Shown: piece by piece, positions 15,450 to 39,492 of the stretch | Layout: each line of letters opens with the position of its first letter | How positions within the stretch are numbered: the stretch's first letter is position 1 | Sequence record: SRR20825019_361 | Strand: one strand, 5' to 3' | DNA length: 64,000 nt | Notes under the pieces: model-generated | Told to the model about the DNA's origin: nothing | What the model saw: only the letters and a program-made list of their open reading frames with translations | Database searches by the model: none | Program-made: the position numbers and the translations under genes

Positions 15450-15474
15450 TTTTTGATATTATTTTTTAATAAAA

Positions 15475-15508
15475 AAGAAGCCCGAATAAATCAATATTCG
15501 GGCTTCTT
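15475..15508. terminator. Bidirectional intrinsic terminator between convergent genes
   Basis: Perfect 14-bp stem aagaagcccgaata/tattcgggcttctt, 6-nt loop, A-tract before and T-rich tract after. Confidence 0.9.
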
Positions 15509-15525
15509 CATTTTATTTTTTTGGA

Positions 15526-18500
15526 TTACTTGGATCCAGTAATCAAGAATTTAACGATTCCTGATTTTCCGTTCGCCGTAGCATGCATGTAATACATTCC
15601 TGTTTCTGCTTGAAGCATTCGTATTTCTTGCGCTGCTTTTTCAACTGTGCCAGATTCAATAAGTCTTCCTTTGTCGTCGTAAATGTTAAACGTCGATCCT
15701 ATTTCTAATCCTGTAACAACAAAAACACCGTCATTTGGATTCGGAGAAAGTACAACGCCATCTAACAAATCTTCATCTATTCCGATGTTGCAGTCTTCGA
15801 CTAAAACGCCAACCACCGTTGTTGCGCCACATCCATTCGCGTCTGTATAGGAATAAATAATGGTGTGTGTTCCTAATCCCGCCACGGTTGGGTCAAATGA
15901 ATTCCCACTCACTCCTGGACCGCTGAACGTTCCGCCTGCTGGTGTACCAACCATGGAAATTATTCCTGACGTAGCGATGCAAACAGTTCCCAAAGAATCA
16001 GGTGCAACCGAGACAATCGGAAGTGGATTGACAGTTAAGTTTGTGGTAACAGTACTATCACATCCGTTTGTTCCTGTGAGAACATCAGTATAAGTTCCTG
16101 CAATTGAGTAGGTACTTCCACCAACCGTAAATGTCGACCCTTCACAGATGGATTCACTTTGAGTCGATGAAGTTGTTGGCAATACTGTAACGGTAACTTG
16201 ACTTGTGTTTGAACATCCAGCAGTAGTTCCTGTTACCGTATACGTTGTGGTTGTTGTTGGAGAAACGATTTGTGTCGCTCCCGCACCAAGACCGTTGTCC
16301 CATGAATAAGTTGTTGCTCCTGAGGCCGAAATGGTCGCTGATTCTCCAGTACAAATCGTTGTTGTCCCCGAAGAAGTTACATTCGGCGCGTTTGGATCTG
16401 TCAATGTTTGTGAAATCATATTCGAAGTACATCCATTTCCATTCACAAATGTAATCGAATAGGATCCTGAAGCTAAGCCTGTAATTGAATACGGAAGGGA
16501 AACTCCTGTTGCACTTCCAGATGTTGTTCCTGTCCATGTAAGATCGCCAGTCCCATTTCCGCCAATGTTGATTGAACCAGTTGCAGTAGAACATGCCGTT
16601 GGATCGCTGAATGAACCAATGGAAATAACAGGGTTTGGATTTACAGTAACCGTAACTTGTGCGGTATTTGAACATCCAGAAGTGGTTCCTGTAACCGTGT
16701 ACGTAGTTGTTGTAGTTGGGGACACTGATTGCGTCGCTCCTGCTCCTAATCCGTTATCCCAAGAATAAGTTGTAGCTCCAGAACTAGAAATGCTAACGGT
16801 ACTTCCAACACAAATAGTTGCTGAACCTGAAGCTAAGACAGTTGGTAAAGGAGTTACAGTAATGGTAACTTGAGCGGTATTTGAACAACCAGCTGTTGTG
16901 CCAGTTACGGTGTACGTTGTTGTTGAAGTAGGAGAAACGGATTGTGTTGCGCCAGCTCCTAATCCATTGTCCCAAGAATAAGTAGTTGCTCCCGATCCTG
17001 TAATTGACGCCGAAGTTCCAGCACAAATAGTTGCAGCTCCAGATGCCGAAACGGTTGGAATTGCATTCACAGTGATGTAGTTGTTTAATGTAATTGGATC
17101 AGATCCACTTCCATTCGATGCGGTTAAAGTCACCGAGTATGTTCCGGGCGTAGCATATACATGTGTTGGATTCTGCAAAGTAGAAGTGTTTGCGTCTCCA
17201 AAGTCCCAGCTCCACCCAGTTGGTGCGTTTGTAGATAAATCGGTGAAGCTAACAGAACTTCCAGCACAAATGGTGGTTGGCGTAGCAGAGAAATTCGCCA
17301 CGGGAGGTGTTCCAACAGCTGGATTGTATATTCCAACTCCAAATCCTGAGAACCCAGTGCTGAATGATGAGGTAAATGTAGCGTCACTCCCGAATGCTCC
17401 AAGTGTGGAACTCGAACTTGAAATAGTATATGTCGCAGCATTTCCTGGAGTTACATCGCTAATCGCATTGGAACCGTCAACTTTTACAATTTCTGCGTTG
17501 TTTCTGCTGTTTCCTGTTGCTGTTTCCCAACCTGCGACTTCTGCTTCTTCGTAATAAAGAGTAACGTCGTACGTCCCAGAAGGATTCGTGTTTGTTGGAA
17601 CAACGGTGTAGGTTTTTGACGCCAAATAATCGGCTGGAGTAGCTGTGTTGAACTGTGCGGCTGTTGTGCCTGATCGATCAACTTCAACGGTAACGCATCC
17701 GTAATCAAATGCCGAGGTATTTTCTAAGGTCATCATTACGTTGCCTGATGTAGGATCGTAAAAGTGCACAGTTTTGTTCGGGCCTAAATTTGCCGTTTGT
17801 CCAGTTCCTGTATTCACAGCGGTTTGTACACCTATTGAACTTGTACCTGAAACATTTACGTCATCAATTGCACAACCGTATAACCAGCCCGTTGCATCGC
17901 TGTAACGAACTTTTAAAACAACATTCGCGTTTCCAACGTAAGGCGTAATGTCAAAATTTTGTGTAGTCCATGAAACATCAATCGGTGAAGCAACTAAAGC
18001 GCCAACAAGCACATCCGGAGCTCCGTTAACTGAAACAAAAACATCTGCATTTTCATTGTTTCCTTGGTACGTATTATCTTCAAAATAGGACAAGAAGGAG
18101 AAGTTAGCCGTTGTATAACCTGTTAAATCCAAGCTAGGAAGAATAAGGTCGACTTGATTTTGATTACAATTACATGCGTCGTCATTTACCCATGCAAATT
18201 GTCCAGTATTAGAATTGGGAATTGCATAAGCTGCTGAACTCGCTGCGGCTAAGTTTCCTACCTGAAAAGCCGTTGCACCAGACGGATTCAGCGTTGCGAA
18301 AGGCGCTAATGTTCCATCTTGGAAATCGTCTTGGAAAATTACTGTCGCTGTAAGAACACTCGCAGGAGCTAAATCGTCATCGTTTATGGTAATCGTTACC
18401 GTTTGATTGGTACCTCCAACAACTGCATCACCTCCGTTTGCATTTAGCGAATAGTTCAGCGTAATTGTTTCATTTCCTTCAACGTAGTTATCATCATAGA

Positions 18501-22612: not shown

Positions 22613-24334
22613 ATGCAAAAAAGATGGTTTGTCAAAACTCCATTGGAACGTACAACTGTAGATTCGTTTCGTTCAATCCTTAAAGTCGACCCAGTGGTGT
22701 CGGAAATTTTACTCCAACGCGGAATTGATTCGTTTCATAAAGCGGAATCGTTTTTCCGACCGCAACTTAGCGATTTACACGATCCTTTTCTGATGAAAGA
22801 TTTGGAATTGGCTGCTAAGCGACTGTCTAAAGCACTGAAAAATGGAGAAAGAATTCTACTTTATGGCGATTATGATGTAGATGGAACTACGGCAGTTGCG
22901 CTCATGTATACATTTCTCAAAGAGCACACAGATCAATTGGATTTTTACATTCCTGATCGGTACACAGAGGGTTATGGAGTAAGTCGAAAAGGAATGGAAT
23001 ACGCGGTGAGTGAGAAGATTAACTTGCTGATTACACTCGATTGCGGAATCAAGGCGAATGACGAAATTGCGTTTGCACGTGAGAACGGAATTGATGTGAT
23101 TGTGTGCGATCACCATACTCCTGGGGAGATTCTTCCAGATGCGTTGGTATTGGATCCAAAGCGAATTGATGATGAGTATCCGTATAAAGAACTTTCTGGT
23201 TGTGGAGTAGGATTTAAGTTGCTTCAAGGACTCTGCGCGTTGGAGCAATGGAACTTGGACAAACTATTTGAACTGCTCGATTTATTAGCGATTAGCATTG
23301 GAGCGGATATTGTTGAAATTACGGGAGAGAATAGAATTTTGTGCTTTCATGGTTTACGTTTGTTGAATGAGCAGCCTAGAACAGCATTTAAAGAAATGTT
23401 GATTCTCGCCAAAAGATCCTTTCCTGTGAGTTTGACCGACGTTGTATTTACGATAGCTCCGCGAATCAATGCCGCTGGAAGGTTGCGATCAGGGAAGTAT
23501 GCCGTGGAATTAATGATTTCCAACAACGTAGATGAAATTAGACAACTCGCGGCGGATATCGATGCAGATAATACAGAGCGACGTTTGCTCGATCAAGAGA
23601 TTACCGAGGAAGCACTCGAAATGATCGAAGGGTTTAGTGATGATCGCAGTACGAATGTTGTTTTCAACCCAGATTGGCACAAAGGAGTGGTGGGAATTGT
23701 GGCTTCACGGATCATTGAAAAGCATTACAAACCAACGATTGTATTGACGGAGTCGAATGGAATGATCGTTGGCTCTGCGCGCTCTGTGCGAGGATTTGAT
23801 GTTCATCAGGCGATTGATAGTTGCAGTGAGTTATTGGAACAGTTCGGGGGACACATGTACGCCGCTGGTTTGACTTTAAAACCCGAGAATTTGGCCGCTT
23901 TTTCTGCGAAATTTGAGGAAGTTGTGCGATTAAGTATGGAAAAAGAATTTAGAACAGAAGAGCAAATTGTTGACATTGAACTCACGTTTGATCAACTGTT
24001 TCAACCTGAAGAAAATCGAATGAAACTACCAAAGTTGAAGCGGATTTTGAAACAATTGGAGCCGCATGGACCGGGAAACATGAAACCTGTATTCGTGAGC
24101 AGAAATGTATTCGCTACAGACATTCGAATTTTGAAAGAAGCACACCTGAAACTCAATGTTGTTCAACCTCCGCACGATGTTGTAATTGAAGCAATAGGAT
24201 TTAAGATGGCAGATAAAGTTGATGAAGTAGCTGCGGGAATTCCTTTTGAAATTGTGTACACATTAGAAGGAAATCGCTGGAATGGCAAAGAAACACTTCA
24301 GATGAATATTAAAGATTTACGCGCGATGGTATAG
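22613..24334 (+). CDS. recJ: Single-stranded-DNA-specific exonuclease RecJ
   Basis: YGDYDVDG, ITLDCGI, DHH, APRINAAGR, GSARS, FGGHMYAAG. Confidence 0.97.
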   Translation: MQKRWFVKTPLERTTVDSFRSILKVDPVVSEILLQRGIDSFHKAESFFRPQLSDLHDPFLMKDLELAAKRLSKALKNGERILLYGDYDVDGTTAVALMYTFLKEHTDQLDFYIPDRYTEGYGVSRKGMEYAVSEKINLLITLDCGIKANDEIAFARENGIDVIVCDHHTPGEILPDALVLDPKRIDDEYPYKELSGCGVGFKLLQGLCALEQWNLDKLFELLDLLAISIGADIVEITGENRILCFHGLRLLNEQPRTAFKEMLILAKRSFPVSLTDVVFTIAPRINAAGRLRSGKYAVELMISNNVDEIRQLAADIDADNTERRLLDQEITEEALEMIEGFSDDRSTNVVFNPDWHKGVVGIVASRIIEKHYKPTIVLTESNGMIVGSARSVRGFDVHQAIDSCSELLEQFGGHMYAAGLTLKPENLAAFSAKFEEVVRLSMEKEFRTEEQIVDIELTFDQLFQPEENRMKLPKLKRILKQLEPHGPGNMKPVFVSRNVFATDIRILKEAHLKLNVVQPPHDVVIEAIGFKMADKVDEVAAGIPFEIVYTLEGNRWNGKETLQMNIKDLRAMV

Positions 24335-24347
24335 AAGACATAGTAAA

Positions 24348-24371
24348 AGCGACGAGAGCAATCTCGTCGCT
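24348..24371. terminator. Intrinsic terminator between convergent genes
   Basis: Perfect 10-bp stem agcgacgaga/tctcgtcgct with GCAA tetraloop; flanking A- and T-rich runs. Confidence 0.85.
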
Positions 24372-24380
24372 CATTTGTTT

Positions 24381-24854
24381 TTAATAGTAACCTCCATCAG
24401 GGGTTTCGTATTGGAGCACCTTCTTCTTTTCCACAGTTACTGCTCCCATGCATCCTTGACCTTTTCCAGAGTCTCCGCAAGGCGAGCAATAGTAATGAGT
24501 AACTTTTCCTCTGGTTGTTGTACCGGCTTTACAGCCATTTGAACAACCGTCGCAATGAACTGTTACTCCTCCAGGGAACTTTTTCTTGTCGAAATAACTT
24601 GAGATTTCTTTTTCTGTCGACTTAAAAACAACTTGCTGTGATTTTTTGAAATACAGTATTTCATACCCTTTTTCCACTCTAACAAAGCCTTTCTCATCAA
24701 TTTTTAAGAAATCCATGTCGATTCCTTTGAACATTTCCATTGTTTCATTGTCAAACTGAATTGCGACTACTTTAATTGACTCGCCTTCTTGAGCGATTAA
24801 TTGCTGATTCCAAAACATTCCTAATACAAGGAGTAATCCTACTTTAATTCTCAT
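24381..24854 (-). CDS. Hypothetical secreted protein with a six-cysteine C-terminal domain
   Basis: Signal peptide; HCDGCSNGC...YYCSPCGDSGKGQGC. Confidence 0.75.
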   Translation of the reverse strand: MRIKVGLLLVLGMFWNQQLIAQEGESIKVVAIQFDNETMEMFKGIDMDFLKIDEKGFVRVEKGYEILYFKKSQQVVFKSTEKEISSYFDKKKFPGGVTVHCDGCSNGCKAGTTTRGKVTHYYCSPCGDSGKGQGCMGAVTVEKKKVLQYETPDGGYY

Positions 24855-24910
24855 AATTATATTGTTAAATGGTTAATGAGACCAAAGTAGACTCGATGAA
24901 GTGATTACTC

Positions 24911-24951
24911 TTCACCCAGTTGGATGATAGTGCTTCACCTATTCGGGTGAA
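24911..24951. promoter_or_regulatory. Tandem imperfect palindromic boxes, putative regulator binding sites
   Basis: TTCACCCAGTTGGATGA (24911) and TTCACCTATTCGGGTGAA (24934), 23-bp period, upstream of 24381..24854. Confidence 0.5.
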
Positions 24952-24980
24952 ATCGGTTAAAAGAGCACGATTTTTAGGTT

Positions 24981-25214
24981 TTAAATCAATTCATCCACAC
25001 GTTTTATCCAGTTTTCATCTCGTTCGGTAATCCCGCCAACGTCGTGCGAAGAGATTCGTAACGTAAGTACGCTACATTTTTCAATGGACATATCTGCATG
25101 ATGATTCAAAGCGTCTGAAAGAATCGCTATGCGCATCAAGCACTCAGCGAGATCAGTTTGTGTATCAAATTTTATGGTTCTCTCGTAGGTGTTATTTTTC
25201 AGTTGCCAGTTCAT
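24981..25214 (-). CDS. phhB: Pterin-4-alpha-carbinolamine dehydratase
   Basis: 77 aa; W....YERTIKF, LNHHADM, SSHDVGGITERD; overlaps the 3' end of phhA. Confidence 0.88.
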   Translation of the reverse strand: MNWQLKNNTYERTIKFDTQTDLAECLMRIAILSDALNHHADMSIEKCSVLTLRISSHDVGGITERDENWIKRVDELI

Positions 25215-25923
25215 AATGGTTCCAGTTTTTGTTTAGCTGCACAATCGATTCGAACAGTTGCTCAAAGGTATCGATCACAAAGTACTTTGTTTGAATTTCA
25301 TCGTTTTTAAATGCCATTTCTATCACGTTTTCAAGATCAAAGGGAAGGTGCTCAACCGAAGATTGGATGGATGAGATGGACTCTCCGAATGAGGAAGCGA
25401 TTCCTGCCCCGTATATTTTTAAGCCGTTTTGACGAATAAGACCGAACTCAATGGTGAACCAGTACAAACGCTGAAGTTCAATCAATTTTTGTTCGTCATG
25501 AAGAAATTGAACCCCCAATTTTCCAAATTCATGCATGAAAGAGGAGAAAATCGGTTGCGAAAGTAATGGGACATGACCGAAAATGTCGTGAAACATGTCG
25601 GGTTCTTCCAAATAATCAAGCTGATCCATTCTTCTCAACCAAGTAGAGGAACAGAACTTTTTCTCGGAAAGAAGTTGGAAGAATTCGCGCACGGGAATCA
25701 GCCCTGGAACACATTCCATTTGCCAGCCCGTAGAAGTTTTAAACCATTCGTTAAGAGCTGAAAAGTTCGGAATTTCATCTGCGTTAAGCACATCACCCAT
25801 TTGTGAGAGCGAATCTAAATATTCCTCACATGCCTTGTCTTTAAGGTTTTCTACTTGACGTTCAAACAACGTCTTCCATACTTTTGTGTCTTCGCTTGTG
25901 TAGCGCGCATATTCTTGCTTCAT
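25192..25923 (-). CDS. phhA: Phenylalanine 4-monooxygenase
   Basis: YLEEPDMFHDIFGHVP (Fe ligands), RLYWFTIEFGL, YGAGIASS.GE. Confidence 0.95.
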   Translation of the reverse strand: MKQEYARYTSEDTKVWKTLFERQVENLKDKACEEYLDSLSQMGDVLNADEIPNFSALNEWFKTSTGWQMECVPGLIPVREFFQLLSEKKFCSSTWLRRMDQLDYLEEPDMFHDIFGHVPLLSQPIFSSFMHEFGKLGVQFLHDEQKLIELQRLYWFTIEFGLIRQNGLKIYGAGIASSFGESISSIQSSVEHLPFDLENVIEMAFKNDEIQTKYFVIDTFEQLFESIVQLNKNWNHYELATEK

Positions 25924-25933
25924 TGTGTAAAAT

Positions 25934-25967
25934 AAAAAAAGCCCGATTCAGTTAAGAATCGAGCTTT
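25934..25967 (-). terminator. Intrinsic terminator (attenuator 3:4 hairpin) in the phhA leader
   Basis: AAAGCTCGATTC-TTAACT-GAATCGGGC-TTTTTTT on the minus strand, ending 10 nt before the phhA ATG. Confidence 0.88.
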
Positions 25968-25991
25968 GCGTTTAATTAAAAATTCTATTTT

Positions 25992-26060
25992 TTAGCGCAT
26001 ATCAGTTTCGATCCCATTGTGTTGGATTCGATAATAGTTATATGCGTTTGTTGTCATCAT
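25992..26060 (-). CDS. Putative Tyr-rich leader peptide MMTTNAYNYYRIQHNGIETDMR
   Basis: Translated by hand; TAT AAC TAT TAT cluster; lies between a -7 promoter box and a terminator upstream of phhA. Confidence 0.8.
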   Translation of the reverse strand: MMTTNAYNYYRIQHNGIETDMR

Positions 26061-26068
26061 TTATTTTC

Positions 26069-26076
26069 CAAATATA
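26069..26076 (-). promoter_or_regulatory. -7 promoter element (TATATTTG) for the leader peptide-phhAB transcript
   Basis: Exact TAnnTTTG match 8 nt before the leader ATG. Confidence 0.7.
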
Positions 26077-26077
26077 C

Positions 26078-29000
26078 TTATTCTTTAATCACTTTTACTT
26101 GTGTGCGTTTAGTGTGATCTGAAATAGTAAAGAGATAAATGCCATTTGAAAGACCTTCTAGGGAAAATTCTCCAACAAAATCTCCGCCAATTGTATGAAC
26201 AGTTCGCTTTTCAATTGACTGACCCATTGCGTTATGAAGAATAATTTCTACTTCACTATCGAATCCGCGGAGTTCGAGATTCACTTTGTCATTCGTTGGG
26301 TTTGGATATACGTTCACAGTGTTTGCATCGCCCAGTTCTTCTACTTCGAGTTGAGAATCGATGGTGAAATTAAAGTTGATTCCGTCTCCGTAGTTTGAGT
26401 TAAAGTCTTGGACGATTCCAGCGCCTACTTTCGTAAATCGCGTGTATCCACTTCCATCGTTATTGGCAAAGAAAGAAAGTCCGTCATCACCAGAATCTTT
26501 TACACGATACGTGTAGCATCCCATTGGAAGAAGCATTGTGTCTTTGTAAAGTGTATTTGCTGCCATTCCACTTTTTGAGAAAAGAACAGTACCCGTTTCG
26601 TCCAGTACTTCATACGAACTTTCTCCTGGTACATTGTTCGTTTTGAACCAGATAATGAAGTTTCCAGGAATCACTTTTGGAATATTAAATTCCGAACGAT
26701 AACGATTGTTATAGGCGTATTCATCTGTCCCACCATTTGGATTGCTTACTTCAGCGTTGAACATATTGTCTGTTGAATTCAAGCTATTCCACATACTCCA
26801 AGGAGCGGGTAGTGTAACATCTTCACTTTCCATAAATCCTAAGCTTCCAGTCCACTGATAAGTCACCGTGTTCGCTGGATTATTCACCCAATACGAGATT
26901 GTGAGTGAAGTCAATGTTGTGCTTCCTGTATTTTGAATGGTGATTACAGGTGCATGACAAATAGGATTAGATCTAGCGAACTCAACTCTATTGGAAGGGT
27001 GACTGATTTGAATCACCGATGCATCCAAGCTGTGGTTTGCTGCTCCATAAGTCACCAATTGATTGTTTACATAATAGTTGGAAGATCCAGTAGCCGTTTG
27101 AATTCCATAATCGAAATTTGCAACTTGACCAGGAGTAACATAACTTGTGATGTCCATGTGTTTAACATCGGTTGCCATTCCAGGACACCATCCAGCACGG
27201 TCGTAAATCCATGTTCCACCTTGAGGGTAAACAGGGTTTTCCGCACACTCTTTCCAAGCTTGCCATGTAAATTCATCAGCTCCACCATCAATATCTAAAT
27301 AATGATTTCGAGGAATGAATTCTCCTTCTTGTCCGTGACCTGTAATTGCAGAGCGAACTTTAAAAGAAACACCGTTTGGATTCAATGTAATATCTCTTGG
27401 TTCAAAGAATAAGTCGCTCAAAATATTTTGATAACCGGGAGCGTCTACTTTCCAAATTTGTTTGATATCGATCACGTCTCTTGGAGGTGTCCCAACGATA
27501 AAAAGAAAATCGATGTTCATTTCTTCTTGCCACTGACCTCCACCGCTCATTGTAAGTCGTTTTGGACCTTTGAAAATAGGTGAGTAATCGGTCATTTCGA
27601 ATGTCCAAGTTTTACCATTTGCACCAAGGTTAAGACCAATTCCATAAGGAGTTACAAACGACATGATTTCGTATTTGGATGGCGAACGCTTGAAGTAGTT
27701 GAGTTCCGTTGGAGTTAATGTTCCGGTAGATGAAACAGTGATTGTTCCAAGTAGCGCGCCCGTTTCTCCATCGTAAATAGATTGCGGAATGGCTTGCCAA
27801 ACTTGCGTTGTAGAAACAACGGTAATATCATCATTTATCAAGGTTCCAGGATTCGAAACAACTGCATATTGGGTAATTACATTCGGAATTACAAGAACAG
27901 AATCCATCACAATTGTGTTCGTAACGGTTGTGTTGTAAACACCTTCAAAGAGTGTGATACTCGGACGATTTGGTGCTGTTTGGAAGAATTTTGTAAGCTT
28001 AATTCCTCGTTCAAATGCCCAAGCTGCAGAAGCATTAGAATTGGCAATTAATCCATTTACGGATGCATCGTTCAGTTGAGTTCCAGTTCCTTCGTTTAAT
28101 GGGTAATAGGCTACTAATCGAGCGTATTCTGGGTGAGCAGGTGTAACCGGAATAGACATCCAGTCTTGGATATCAGTGCCAGAAAGCGCTTTGTCCCAAA
28201 TTCTTAGTTCGTCAATTCTACCTTTGTAATTTCCTGAGTAAGTTGCGCTTTTCCCAACAACCATTGAAACGATGTCTATTGGACGTGTTTTACCTGTCCC
28301 TGAATGCCAGAGTGTTCCATTCAAATAGATTTGCATGATTCCAGTTGCTGCATTTTTCACAAATGCCCAATGATTCCACTGTCCTTCGAACTCGGCTGTT
28401 GCAGCGAGCTTATTGATTCGATCGTAGTTTCCGTCTCCACCACAGTCCCAGTATATTTCACTGTTACTCCATGGAAGATGCACGTTAACATCTCGCTCAC
28501 CGTTTGCTCCAAGGGCTTCAATAATGTAGGTGTTCGCTGGAAGTTGATTTGCATCACCAAAAGCCCAAAAAGAAACAGTTATTTCATTGGAAATCCCTGA
28601 CATCGAAGAAGCAGGAACATCGAAATGTCCTTCTGCTGAAAGATCTATATTGTATTCGTTATTGGCATAAATCGCCATGTCGGATGAAGCTGTTCCTTCT
28701 AGCTGAACATCTACACCAGGAACCGAATTCGTAAAAGAAAACTCTATGATAATATTGTCTGTTCCATTCCAAACGAACGGCGTGCTGAATTGAAGTCGAT
28801 TTGACCCTGTGATAAAGTTGAAATCACTAAAGAATACTTGAGTGAATCCTGTCGTTTCAGGTGAAGTAGGATCCAAGACTGACGCGGTAGTTTCTTTTAC
28901 ATTGATTCGTAGGAAATTTACACTTCCACCGTTCAATGCTTGTACAAGGAATCCGTTGATGTTTCCTCCTAAGAATCCAGCGGCAGTTAGTTCCGCTGCT

Positions 29001-37829: not shown

Positions 37830-37886
37830 GTAGCTTAGCTTTTTTGTAGCTTAGCTTTTTTGTGGACTGAGCGGAGTCGAAGCCCA
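37830..37886. repeat. Two 16-bp tandem repeats followed by a REP-like palindrome
   Basis: (gtagcttagctttttt)x2 then gtggact-gagcggagtcga-agccca; 17-bp core identical to the ileS copy. Confidence 0.75.
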
Positions 37887-37913
37887 AAAAAAAGGACACC
37901 TCTCGATGTCCTT
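37886..37913 (-). terminator. Intrinsic terminator of the ALDH7 gene
   Basis: AAGGACATC-GAGA-GGTGTCCTT followed by a T run on the minus strand. Confidence 0.85.
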
Positions 37914-37935
37914 CTTAAAATTTATATGCAGTTTC

Positions 37936-39492
37936 CTACAGTTCGAATTTAATTCCCTGCGCAAGTGGCAATGAATCAGTATAGTTTATTGTGTTTGTTT
38001 GACGACGCATATATACTTTCCAAGCATCTGATCCAGACTCACGTCCACCACCAGTTTCCTTTTCTCCTCCAAAAGCACCACCAATTTCAGCACCAGAAGT
38101 TCCGATGTTTACGTTGGCAATTCCGCAATCAGATCCTGCTACAGACAAGAATTTCTCTGATTCTTGGATCAATCCTGTCATAATCGAAGAAGAAAGTCCT
38201 TGTGGAACATCGTTTTGCATTTTAATTGCATTTTCAACACTTCCGCTGTATTTCATGATATATAAAATAGGCGCGAACGTTTCGTGTTGTACAATTTGCA
38301 TTTCGTTTTTCGCTTCAACGATTGCAGGTTTAACGTAGCATCCAGATTCGTATCCTTCACCTGTTAACACACCACCTTCTACGATGATATTGGCACCTTC
38401 AGCTTTTGCTTGTTCCAATGCTTTCAAGTACATATCAACTGCATCCTTATCGATAAGCGGACCAACGTGGTTTTTCTCATCTAATGGATTTCCAATTTTC
38501 AATTGTGGGTAAGCATTTACGATTGCGTTTTTCACTTTATCATAAACTTCCTCGTGAATCAACAAACGACGTGTTGATGTACAACGTTGTCCACATGTTC
38601 CAACTGCTCCGAAAACCGCTCCTGGTACAACGATGTTTAAATCAGCTGTTGGAGTGATGATGATTGCATTGTTTCCACCTAACTCAAGAAGTGATTTCCC
38701 AAGTCTTGCACCAACTGCAGCGCTCACAGATTTCCCCATGCGCGTAGAACCAGTTGCTGATACTAAAGGAACGCGTTTATCTTCAGCCATTAATTTTCCA
38801 ATCTCAGCACCACCGATGATAAGTCCAGAAACTCCTTCAGGAACTCCATTTGCTTCAAATACTTGTTTTGTAATTTGTTGACAAGCGATCGCAGTAATTG
38901 GTGCTTTTTCAGATGGTTTCCAAACACAAACGTCACCACAAACCCATGCAAGGGCTGTATTCCAATTCCAAACCGCTACTGGAAAGTTAAACGCCGAAAT
39001 AATTCCAACGATTCCAAGTGGATGGTATTGCTCGTACATTCTGTGTCCTGGACGCTCAGAGTGCATTGTTAAACCGTGTAGTTGACGAGAAAGTCCAACT
39101 GCGAAATCACAAATGTCAATCATTTCTTGAACCTCACCCAAACCTTCTTGAAGCGATTTCCCCATTTCATACGAAACGAGTTTTCCAAGCTGCATTTTAT
39201 ATTCTCTTAATTTCTCTGCAAGTTGACGAACTACTTCACCTCTTCTTGGTGCTGGCCACATTTTCCAATCATTGAAAGCCAATTGCGCTTGTTTAATAAC
39301 TGCATCATAATCGCTAGCCGTTGCCGAGTTAACCGTAGCAATAACGTTTCCGTCTACAGGAGAAATAGATTCAATTTTCTCTCCAGTTGTGTTCATCCAA
39401 TGCGAACCAGTAGATGCTCCTCCATTCACAGAATCAACACCAAGTTGATTCAAAATCTCTTTAATTCCTAGATCTGTTAATACTTCAGCCAT
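37936..39492 (-). CDS. ALDH7/antiquitin-family dehydrogenase (alpha-aminoadipic semialdehyde / piperideine-6-carboxylate dehydrogenase-like)
   Basis: GEVQEMIDICDFAVGLSRQL, SAFNFPVAVW, GQRCTSTRRL, SGAEIGGAFGGEKETGGGRESGSD. Confidence 0.92.
   Translation of the reverse strand: MAEVLTDLGIKEILNQLGVDSVNGGASTGSHWMNTTGEKIESISPVDGNVIATVNSATASDYDAVIKQAQLAFNDWKMWPAPRRGEVVRQLAEKLREYKMQLGKLVSYEMGKSLQEGLGEVQEMIDICDFAVGLSRQLHGLTMHSERPGHRMYEQYHPLGIVGIISAFNFPVAVWNWNTALAWVCGDVCVWKPSEKAPITAIACQQITKQVFEANGVPEGVSGLIIGGAEIGKLMAEDKRVPLVSATGSTRMGKSVSAAVGARLGKSLLELGGNNAIIITPTADLNIVVPGAVFGAVGTCGQRCTSTRRLLIHEEVYDKVKNAIVNAYPQLKIGNPLDEKNHVGPLIDKDAVDMYLKALEQAKAEGANIIVEGGVLTGEGYESGCYVKPAIVEAKNEMQIVQHETFAPILYIMKYSGSVENAIKMQNDVPQGLSSSIMTGLIQESEKFLSVAGSDCGIANVNIGTSGAEIGGAFGGEKETGGGRESGSDAWKVYMRRQTNTINYTDSLPLAQGIKFEL

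Follow-up and report, generated by a model that had tools for sequence, protein, structure and literature searches.

The classical leader-peptide attenuators of enterobacteria (trpL-trpEDCBA, pheL-pheA, hisL, thrL, and leuL; PMC11802643) consist of a short open reading frame (ORF) with a cluster of codons for the end product and four RNA segments whose pairings 1:2, 2:3, and 3:4 are mutually exclusive, with a terminator directly before the structural gene, and starvation for the cognate amino acid results in read-through. Here we describe a leader of this design located upstream of the phhA-phhB genes, encoding phenylalanine 4-monooxygenase and pterin-4a-carbinolamine dehydratase, in a stretch of DNA of 64,000 nucleotides (sequence record SRR20825019_361; the whole stretch is hereafter called the window). 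Very probably, it is a Tyr-specific, ribosome-mediated (leader-peptide) transcription attenuator controlling phhA-phhB. It has in common with the enterobacterial attenuators the codon cluster, the four segments, and the position of the terminator, and it would also have in common the read-through upon starvation. Unlike them, it would sense Tyr, and its target is a hydroxylase converting Phe into Tyr, not a chorismate-branch operon; its 1:2 hairpin lies wholly inside the ORF, with the stop codon directly after segment 2; and it has no Shine-Dalgarno sequence and a predicted 5' untranslated region (UTR) of 0-5 nt.

Two further systems invite comparison. The Bacteroid-trp motif (RF01692) is listed as a cis-regulatory motif of Bacteroidetes (Weinberg, 2010; PMC2864571). 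This motif and the His, Trp, and Ile/Val leaders reported below resemble the phhA element in phylum, promoter type, -7 box, codon-run ORF, hairpin, and U-tailed terminator, and differ from it in the regulatory codons and in the downstream gene. The Corynebacterium glutamicum AroR leader preceding aroF (Neshat et al., 2014, as reviewed in PMC11802643) is likewise a ribosome-mediated attenuator of aromatic amino acid metabolism with a Tyr codon in its leader; its regulatory codons are Phe-Tyr-Phe and it responds to Phe, not to Tyr, whereas the phhA leaders carry runs of 3-5 Tyr codons.

The PhhA-PhhB enzyme pair is also known from the Pseudomonas phhABC genes, which are catabolic, induced via the divergent sigma-54 activator PhhR, and include the aminotransferase gene phhC (Song et al., 2005; PMC1173090). 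In contrast, neither a phhR-like sigma-54 activator nor a phhC aminotransferase gene was found in the immediate neighborhood of the window phhA-phhB genes, whose control would instead lie with a product-sensing attenuator. Passages of Song et al. (2005; PMC1173090) list attenuators before tyrA operons only and treat phhA as catabolic. On the other hand, mutant fitness data identify phenylalanine hydroxylase (PAH) as a Tyr route in Dyella as well as in Echinicola, a genus of the Bacteroidota; the passages of that work dealing with this Tyr-source role, the same as the one proposed here, are silent on regulation (PMC7311316).

Anatomy and recurrence of the phhA leader

The leader lies between the TAA stop codon (26080..26078) of an upstream gene encoding a 1154-aa protein with a type IX secretion system (T9SS) C-terminal sorting domain and the phhA ATG at 25923. 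All window coordinates refer to the minus strand unless stated otherwise. The features, from 5' to 3', are as follows:

26069..26076, minus strand: sigma-A -7 promoter box of the Bacteroidota type (consensus TAnnTTTG), TATATTTG, found in the sequence
26061..26064, minus strand: predicted transcription start (about 26064) and 4-nt 5' UTR (AUAA), placed by the box spacing
25992..26060, minus strand: leader ORF of 22 codons plus stop codon, MMTTNAYNYYRIQHNGIETDMR, found in the sequence and with counterparts in relatives
26040..26046, minus strand: outer 5' arm of the 1:2 hairpin, CGCAUAU, from the minimum free energy (MFE) fold
26031..26042, minus strand: regulatory codon cluster TAT AAC TAT TAT (Y N Y Y), found in the sequence
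26023..26031, minus strand: segment 1, UCGAAUCCA, 5' arm of the inner 1:2 hairpin, from the MFE fold
26008..26016, minus strand: segment 2, UGGGAUCGA, with segment 1 or segment 3 as alternative partners, from the MFE and masked folds
25996..26002, minus strand: outer 3' arm of the 1:2 hairpin, AUAUGCG, directly before the leader stop codon, from the MFE fold
25956..25967, minus strand: segment 3, the 5' arm of the terminator, AAAGCUCGAUUC, from the fold and terminator scan
25938..25949, minus strand: segment 4, the 3' arm of the terminator, GAAUCGGGCUUU, from the fold and terminator scan
25929..25937, minus strand: U-run following the stem, UUUUAUUUU, from the sequence and terminator scan

The gap between the end of the -7 box and the leader ATG is 8 nt. 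The leader Tyr codons occupy 26042-40, 26036-34, and 26033-31, and segment 1 begins at the last base of the last of them. The MFE fold of the 171-nt leader region (-35.6 kcal/mol, z = -4.56; none of 200 shuffles as good) comprises the 1:2 hairpin, with 26046..26040 paired to 26002..25996 and 26031..26023 to 26016..26008, and a 12-bp terminator stem (25967..25956 with 25949..25938) followed by the U-run; this stem was also picked up by the terminator scan. When segment 1 is masked, folding instead predicts the 2:3 pairing GGGAUCGA (26015..26008 with 25962..25955, together with UGCG/CGCA; -9.1 kcal/mol), in which the antiterminator additionally uses position 25955 and the CGCA at 25967..25970. 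An earlier sequence-only reading of this DNA had located the box, the 22-codon ORF, its Tyr codons, the hairpins, the terminator, and the phhA ATG; the sequence, the fold, and the terminator scan confirmed all of these coordinates, and the masked fold returned the 2:3 antiterminator that it had proposed.

The window copy by itself is not statistically striking, and several of its properties weigh against reading it as an attenuator. Three of 800 small ATG ORFs in the window reach at least three Tyr in five codons, the 2:3 duplex is weak (-7.5 kcal/mol, shuffle p = 0.08), and the Tyr run is interrupted (YNYY). The copy is thus among the weaker ones, ranking 35th in the covariance model introduced below with 70.9 bits (E = 3.2e-8). 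The chance frequency of such ORFs and the non-significance of the 2:3 duplex taken alone would also suit another explanation, namely that the hairpin serves the upstream T9SS-tailed gene as its intrinsic terminator and that the Tyr-rich ORF arose by chance in AT-rich sequence. In the window, that gene is co-directional with phhA and no other terminator precedes the hairpin; the leader -7 box begins one base past its stop codon (26076..26080).

The unit is considered more than chance because it recurs directly upstream of phhA. A PhhA protein search, with one genome per species, gave 582 relatives, of which the best 80 loci were kept. According to their titles, these are mostly Flavobacteriales (Crocinitomicaceae, Fluviicola, Vicingaceae, Psychroflexus, and Flavobacterium), with Saprospiraceae/Lewinella and a few others, and their PhhA proteins are 50-83% identical to that of the window. 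Eighty upstream regions were evaluated, comprising the window and 79 loci (L011 had no upstream DNA). In 54 of them, an ATG ORF with at least three Tyr in five codons and a terminator lie just before phhA, whereas only 26 of 6035 small ORFs elsewhere in the loci reach three Tyr in five codons. A terminator precedes phhA in 63 of the 80 regions; in the nine terminator regions lacking such an ATG ORF, the ORF begins with GTG or TTG, or contains two Tyr next to Phe or Trp. One doubtful region was dropped (L036, with its ORF 208 nt from phhA), leaving 62 regions for the later counts. What recurs, in 63 of the 80 regions, is a -7 box, a 5' UTR that is very short or missing, an ORF of about 19 codons with 3-5 clustered Tyr codons, the 1:2 hairpin, the 2:3 antiterminator, and the U-tailed terminator; examples of leader peptides in relatives are MQKQNTYYYYRFHLGESEM, MMNNKKYYYYYIPKTGL, and MKIANTYYYYYSILFKELR. 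Element-bearing isolates include Flavobacterium gelidilacus DSM 15343 (L010), several Psychroflexus species, and Planktosalinus lacus.

To counter the bias of the best 80 loci, 151 genomes were sampled evenly across the class that includes G005, a genome represented by a complete 3.03-Mb chromosome. A short PhhA-type gene was found in 19 of these genomes, and a Tyr leader with a terminator was present at nine of the 17 further PhhA loci examined and absent at the other eight. The Tyr-rich upstream ORF, whose conservation in relatives the sequence-only reading had proposed to examine, is therefore found in 54 of 80 regions and at 9 of 17 class-sample loci.

In most loci, phhA begins 9-45 nt past the terminator stem. 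In L025, the element lies 240 nt further upstream of phhA; an insert of about 230 nt, richer in GC (L025:2760-2990), separates the Tyr attenuator terminator from phhA, with the attenuator intact upstream, and may be a small mobile or repeat element.

The genes surrounding the element speak against a terminator that belongs to the upstream gene. Upstream of the element, the genes vary, encoding GldM, an aldehyde dehydrogenase, a DUF4836 protein, 3-deoxy-D-arabino-heptulosonate 7-phosphate (DAHP) synthase, or, in the window, the T9SS protein, and in 26 of 59 element-bearing loci the first ORF upstream runs on the other strand (mechanical ORF calls; three loci unscorable). Downstream, a same-strand ORF of 75-92 aa occupies the phhB position in 19 of the 59 loci (only that of the window was Pfam-tested), while the other loci have a convergent or unrelated gene in next position (carbon-nitrogen hydrolase, Dus, DEAD helicase, and others). 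phhA is the sole constant partner of the element. Because the neighbors differ between loci and are often divergent, the hairpin is not the terminator of the upstream gene; the sequence-only reading had itself raised this objection, and the opposite-strand upstream ORFs exclude it. The ORF and terminator accompany phhA whatever lies upstream, the run is in the Tyr frame in 58 of 62 loci (see below), the background rate of such ORFs is 26 of 6035, and, with PhhA identities as low as 50%, the loci are not assembly duplicates. An upstream-gene terminator with a chance ORF is therefore highly improbable. In the window, the attenuator terminator probably also ends transcripts arriving from the T9SS-tailed gene, and stopping this read-through would be a possible extra rather than a conserved role.

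Codon reading, alternative pairings, and the proposed switch

In 58 of the 62 loci, the frame that encodes the Tyr run has an ATG-started ORF covering it; the counts for the other two frames are 0 and 7. The leader ORF has a median length of 19 codons in relatives. The clusters hold 3-5 Tyr within five codons in 56 of the 62 loci. Among the cluster codons, TAT occurs 180 times, TAC 36 times, and any other codon 18 times; thus the synonymous third-position change is the tolerated one, which indicates that the Tyr run is read as codons. The leader stop codon typically follows segment 2 immediately, 24-27 nt past the last Tyr codon, and a further 20-33 nt separate it from the terminator arm.

It could be argued that the attenuator is real and its leader RNA is read by a protein, a tRNA, or a small molecule, the ORF being incidental. 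The UAUUAU repeats could in principle form an RNA-level binding motif, and the predicted near absence of a 5' UTR impairs initiation in some bacteria. However, the run is in frame with a start located right after the promoter and a stop right after segment 2, and third-position T/C changes are tolerated, in contrast to all other changes. Moreover, sister elements in the same genomes carry His, Trp, or Ile/Val codons matching the downstream pathway, and a codon run swapped in step with the pathway is the hallmark of codon reading. Nor was any riboswitch or T-box match found: in an Rfam 15 scan of 24000..28000 with E up to 1, no family, RF01692 included, reached its gathering score, and the single match, PyrG_leader, was at chance level (28.1 bits compared with a gathering score of 65; E = 0.84). 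A signal other than the translating ribosome is thus very unlikely. It is barely conceivable that the small ORF encodes a functional Tyr-rich peptide, such as a modified-peptide precursor. The conserved position and length of the ORF would suit such a product, but the peptide is poorly conserved outside the Tyr run, its recurring parts follow RNA pairing needs, no modification or export genes are linked to it in the loci examined, and the terminator and then phhA always follow.

Both helices of the terminated fold are supported by covariation. RNAalifold, applied to a rough MAFFT alignment of the 62 regions, recovered the terminator only, with compensatory changes in nine of nine pairs; the 1:2 and 2:3 pairings needed per-locus folding and a trimmed alignment. 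The latter, a MAFFT alignment of 55 leaders not fitted to structure (L006, L014, L023, L055, L066, L073, and L074 were left out), was scored against the terminated fold (1:2 and 3:4). In total, 81.1% of cells were paired (72.1% in shuffled alignments), with 145 double-change cells (49.5 shuffled) and a covariation score of 0.384 (0.220 shuffled); none of 500 shuffles reached the observed values, and slid controls were 27-54% paired. In the 1:2 helix, 71.5% of cells were paired, with both-side changes in 7 of 12 pairs, and in the terminator helix, 90.1%, with both-side changes in 10 of 13 pairs. The terminators have GC-rich stems of 9-13 bp followed by at least five U, and the four T columns of the U-run are invariant in both alignments. 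In the leader MFE folds, the partner of segment 2 spans, in 61 of 62 loci, -1 to +7 nt (median) relative to the end of the last Tyr codon, and the per-locus segment 2 leader folds have a mean z of -3.08, with z at or below -2 in 52 of 62.

The antiterminator was examined for each locus by pairing the loop-proximal 10 nt of the terminator 5' arm with the sequence that separates the last Tyr codon from the terminator. Across the 62 loci, the mean duplex energy was -10.03 kcal/mol with the own arm, -7.72 kcal/mol with dissimilar arms from other loci, and -5.31 kcal/mol with shuffled upstream sequence. None of 5000 permutations in which partners were reassigned reached the observed own-arm mean, and p was at or below 0.05 in 43 of 62 loci. 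The binding site mostly starts 13-16 nt past the last Tyr codon. Segment 2 changes together with the terminator arm, as in CGGGAACUG / CGUUCCCG, GGAAGCCG / CGGUUUCC, and GGAUCGG / CCGGUCC. The covarying stems that the sequence-only reading had hoped to see in relatives are therefore present for the terminator and the 1:2 helix, and the antiterminator arm tracks its own terminator arm.

Ribosome positions were modeled by folding transcripts cut before segment 4 with the ribosome footprint masked, segment 3 being counted as sequestered when at least five of its core nucleotides paired upstream. With the ribosome on the Tyr codons, segment 3 was sequestered in 61 of 62 loci; with the ribosome on the stop codon, it was sequestered in two, the 2:3 pairing being abolished in 60 of 62. 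In these models, masked folding reproduces the trp-type decision. All sequence-level defining features of classical leader-peptide attenuators, as known from the trp/his/pheA class, were tested and found at the phhA element: clustered codons for the pathway end product in a short leader ORF, an intrinsic terminator between this ORF and the structural gene, segment 1 inside the stalled-ribosome footprint with the stop codon placed to block segment 2 (footprint sizes assumed), and a 2:3 antiterminator sharing the terminator 5' arm (duplex test and masked folds). The trp/his/pheA-type architecture with Tyr codons suggested by the sequence-only reading thus gains support from the conserved upstream ORF, the covariation, and the masked folds.

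The promoter box points to a start of transcription very close to the leader ATG. An exact TAnnTTTG is present within 45 nt upstream of this ATG in 39 of 53 leader loci (background 0.037 per stretch of that size), a one-mismatch version in 12, and none in two; the box end and the ATG are mostly 4-9 nt apart, most often 4 nt (11 of 39). In Flavobacterium psychrophilum, the -7 box occupies positions -12 to -5 (PMC9723704). Given this placement and the 4-9-nt gap, the leader ORF is predicted to start 0-5 nt from the 5' end, and the leader transcripts would be leaderless or nearly so.

According to the proposed mechanism, transcription would start from the sigma-A -7 box a few bases before the leader AUG, and a ribosome would translate the 22 codons of the leader. 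With ample charged tRNA-Tyr, this ribosome would reach the stop codon and cover segment 2, the 3:4 terminator would form, and transcription would end some 15 nt before phhA. A shortage of charged tRNA-Tyr would make the ribosome stall on the Tyr codons and cover segment 1, leaving segment 2 just outside its footprint and able to pair with the emerging segment 3; no terminator would form, resulting in read-through into phhA-phhB. Without translation, both 1:2 and 3:4 would form and transcription would terminate.

A second group of findings stands on the other side of the balance. The alignment-based signal for the antiterminator is modest: in the MAFFT alignment, 69.7% of its cells are paired compared with 65.7% after shuffling, although its 29 double-change cells (17.1 shuffled) were reached by none of 500 shuffles. 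A one-column slide performs about as well as the antiterminator register (65.2% paired; covariation 0.251 compared with 0.236), a result that we ascribe to shifted registers in the MAFFT alignment. Support for 2:3 thus comes mainly from the per-locus duplex test. In free RNA, segment 3 is sequestered in 26 of 62 loci, the 2:3 pairing being thermodynamically preferred there, and hence termination without translation would hinge on folding kinetics. In addition, a 5' UTR of 0-5 nt, as predicted here, would be unusual, and leaderless mRNAs account for 5.5% in F. psychrophilum (PMC9723704).

A related possibility is that the leader does sense Tyr but acts on mRNA stability or on translation of phhA 15 nt downstream, or that it serves a general aromatic response. 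phhA is near enough to the stem in most loci for such coupling, mixed aromatic leaders exist (FFYYFF in L074, YWY in L061, and FYY in L065), and the Phe-Tyr-Phe codons of C. glutamicum AroR respond to Phe, not to Tyr (PMC11802643). Against this, the GC-rich stems with their U-runs are canonical intrinsic terminators and invariant, and non-Tyr codons in the clusters are few and varied. We regard this possibility as very unlikely, and Tyr-specific transcription attenuation as the preferred reading.

PhhA as a probable source of tyrosine

Bacterial PAH is usually annotated as catabolic. In the mechanism proposed here, PhhA, with PhhB recycling the pterin, would turn Phe into Tyr, and the switch would most likely turn PhhA on when Tyr is short. 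An enzyme induced by the lack of its own product would act as a biosynthetic Tyr source, product-sensing attenuator control being the signature of a biosynthetic gene. Consistently, the examined loci show no homogentisate-pathway, other catabolic, or regulator genes beside phhA.

The gene content of relatives was assessed by searching the 45 genomes behind L001-L046 for the Pfam families of chorismate synthase, PDT (PheA), and PDH_N (TyrA, PF02153). Chorismate synthase was above the cut-off in 42 genomes, PDT in 22, and PDH_N in 13 (9 strong). Of the 38 element-bearing genomes, 36 have chorismate synthase, 29 have no TyrA above the cut-off, and 20 lack PDT; ten of the 29 TyrA-less genomes have PDT. 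Both TyrA and PheA are absent from the complete chromosome of G005 and from G001, the closest relative of the window (PhhA 83% identical). The sequence-only reading had raised the question of a missing tyrA, and the gene is indeed missing from most element carriers, including this closest relative. Against a general replacement stand the nine element-bearing genomes that do have TyrA, and also the class sample, in which a strong TyrA was found in 2 of 19 PhhA holders compared with 30 of 132 others, a depletion that is not significant; only 32 of the 151 genomes have a strong TyrA at all. We therefore do not claim the replacement of TyrA by PhhA as a statistical association. Moreover, most of the genomes are metagenome-assembled genomes (MAGs), which makes the gene absences soft.

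In the literature searched, outside which lay older attenuator surveys and the supplementary 5'-region table of PMC9723704, we found no description of a Tyr-specific leader peptide or of a phhA attenuator. With a confidence that we would put halfway, the element may be the first Tyr-specific ribosome-mediated attenuator, widespread in Bacteroidota (about half of PhhA-bearing genomes, in Flavobacteriales, Saprospiraceae, and other lineages) and acting on leaderless or near-leaderless transcripts, on which the sensing ribosome would load at the extreme 5' end. It would mark PhhA as the regulated, and in many cases the sole, Tyr route where TyrA has been lost, about half of these lineages also being without PheA and obtaining Tyr from scavenged Phe.

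The phhA element would add a missing amino acid, Tyr, to the classical set of leader-peptide attenuators, and its product-sensing control would be strong regulatory evidence for PAH as a biosynthetic enzyme in these organisms. Such evidence would be independent of fitness data and would extend the Tyr-source role to many uncultured Flavobacteriales, altering how Tyr/Phe auxotrophy should be called in genomes of marine and freshwater members of this group. Bacteroidota are a phylum without Shine-Dalgarno sequences, and the predicted leaderless or near-leaderless leader peptides would offer a simple natural system for the study of translation start and its coupling to transcription.

Neighboring genes and related leaders

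The regulated gene and its downstream partner in the window are as follows:

25192..25923, minus strand: phhA, phenylalanine 4-monooxygenase, 243 aa, the regulated gene (PF00351, E = 2.7e-46)
24981..25214, minus strand: phhB, pterin-4a-carbinolamine dehydratase, 77 aa (PF01329, E = 6.7e-12)

The window PhhA exceeds the NCBIfam equivalog cut-offs (TIGR01267, 265.2 compared with 264.75 bits; NF008877, 264.5 compared with 247) and its best solved relative is 1ltu (E = 3.1e-61); judged by the curated equivalog scores, it can be assigned to the monomeric bacterial phenylalanine 4-monooxygenases. The NCBIfam matches of PhhB score below the cut-off. phhB overlaps the 3' end of phhA by 23 nt, and the two genes are presumably co-transcribed. 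The neighbors of phhA in the window are thus the T9SS-tailed protein gene, phhB, an ORF of 157 aa (24381..24854, minus strand), located 126 nt after phhB and without a Pfam or NCBIfam match, and then the convergent recJ gene with its terminator (24348..24371, plus strand). Loci without the element were checked for a shared alternative context: an aromatic-pathway gene lies directly upstream in three, where phhA is located directly behind DAHP synthase (L026 and L120) or a TrpB-like gene (L070), and the rest are unrelated.

The covariance model built from the 55 leaders, which together with their alignment makes a ready seed for a new RNA family, had a single strong match, namely the phhA leader, in 37 of the 38 genomes of relatives. 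A search of the class sample with strict filters matched 2 of 151 genomes, whereas with filters off on the PhhA loci, eight matches and one weak match were obtained; the strict-filter tally thus undercounts and was left out of the prevalence estimate. In the relatives' genomes, the model also returned 24 weaker secondary matches, 20 of which were fetched. Seven of these are His leaders with HHHH, e.g., MNFIQLHHHHFHTGPQASRR (L085, L086, L087, L089, L092, L094, and L100; for instance, L086:34-190), with weak Tyr-model scores of 43-49 bits. In each, a hairpin and then a U-tailed terminator follow; the ORF after the L086 leader matches HisG, and those of the other six start with a near-identical N-terminal sequence. 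The His leaders share the -7 box and the short UTR with the Tyr leader. A TTG-started WWW leader, MKTNKAILFWWWDNLN (L084:45-170), precedes a DAHP synthase gene, an unusual place for a Trp leader, and an Ile/Val-rich leader, MKQVQNILIQIISVVIIGHERV (L081, minus strand), precedes a gene encoding a class IV (IlvE-type) aminotransferase. The phhA element thus belongs to a group of similarly built leaders on biosynthetic genes of these bacteria. The remaining fetched matches are ordinary terminators. Within the window, a secondary match at 15470..15568 was rejected as an ordinary terminator after a gene, and another, at 37885..38000, had an E value of 0.74.

Several minor observations were made in the course of these comparisons. 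In L020, a second attenuator-like unit (L020:405-535) lies 800 nt upstream of the phhA leader and comprises a TATATTTG box, the ORF MKTIKHITKRTLILLNKN, a hairpin, and a terminator; it precedes a gene encoding a 193-aa hotdog-fold thioesterase-like protein and has no obvious regulatory codon run. Two loci, L046 (titled Glaciecola amylolytica, a gammaproteobacterial name) and L029 (an Actinomyces viscosus MAG), have a PhhA locus, leader, and box of the Flavobacteriales type, and the L046 leader is nearly identical to that of the Fluviicola locus L033; the labels of both look doubtful. Finally, 19 of the 151 sampled genomes encode a protein some 580-630 aa long in which Biopterin_H matches twice, partially and at about 50 bits each time (L122-L132); it represents a different, longer aromatic amino acid hydroxylase-like family.

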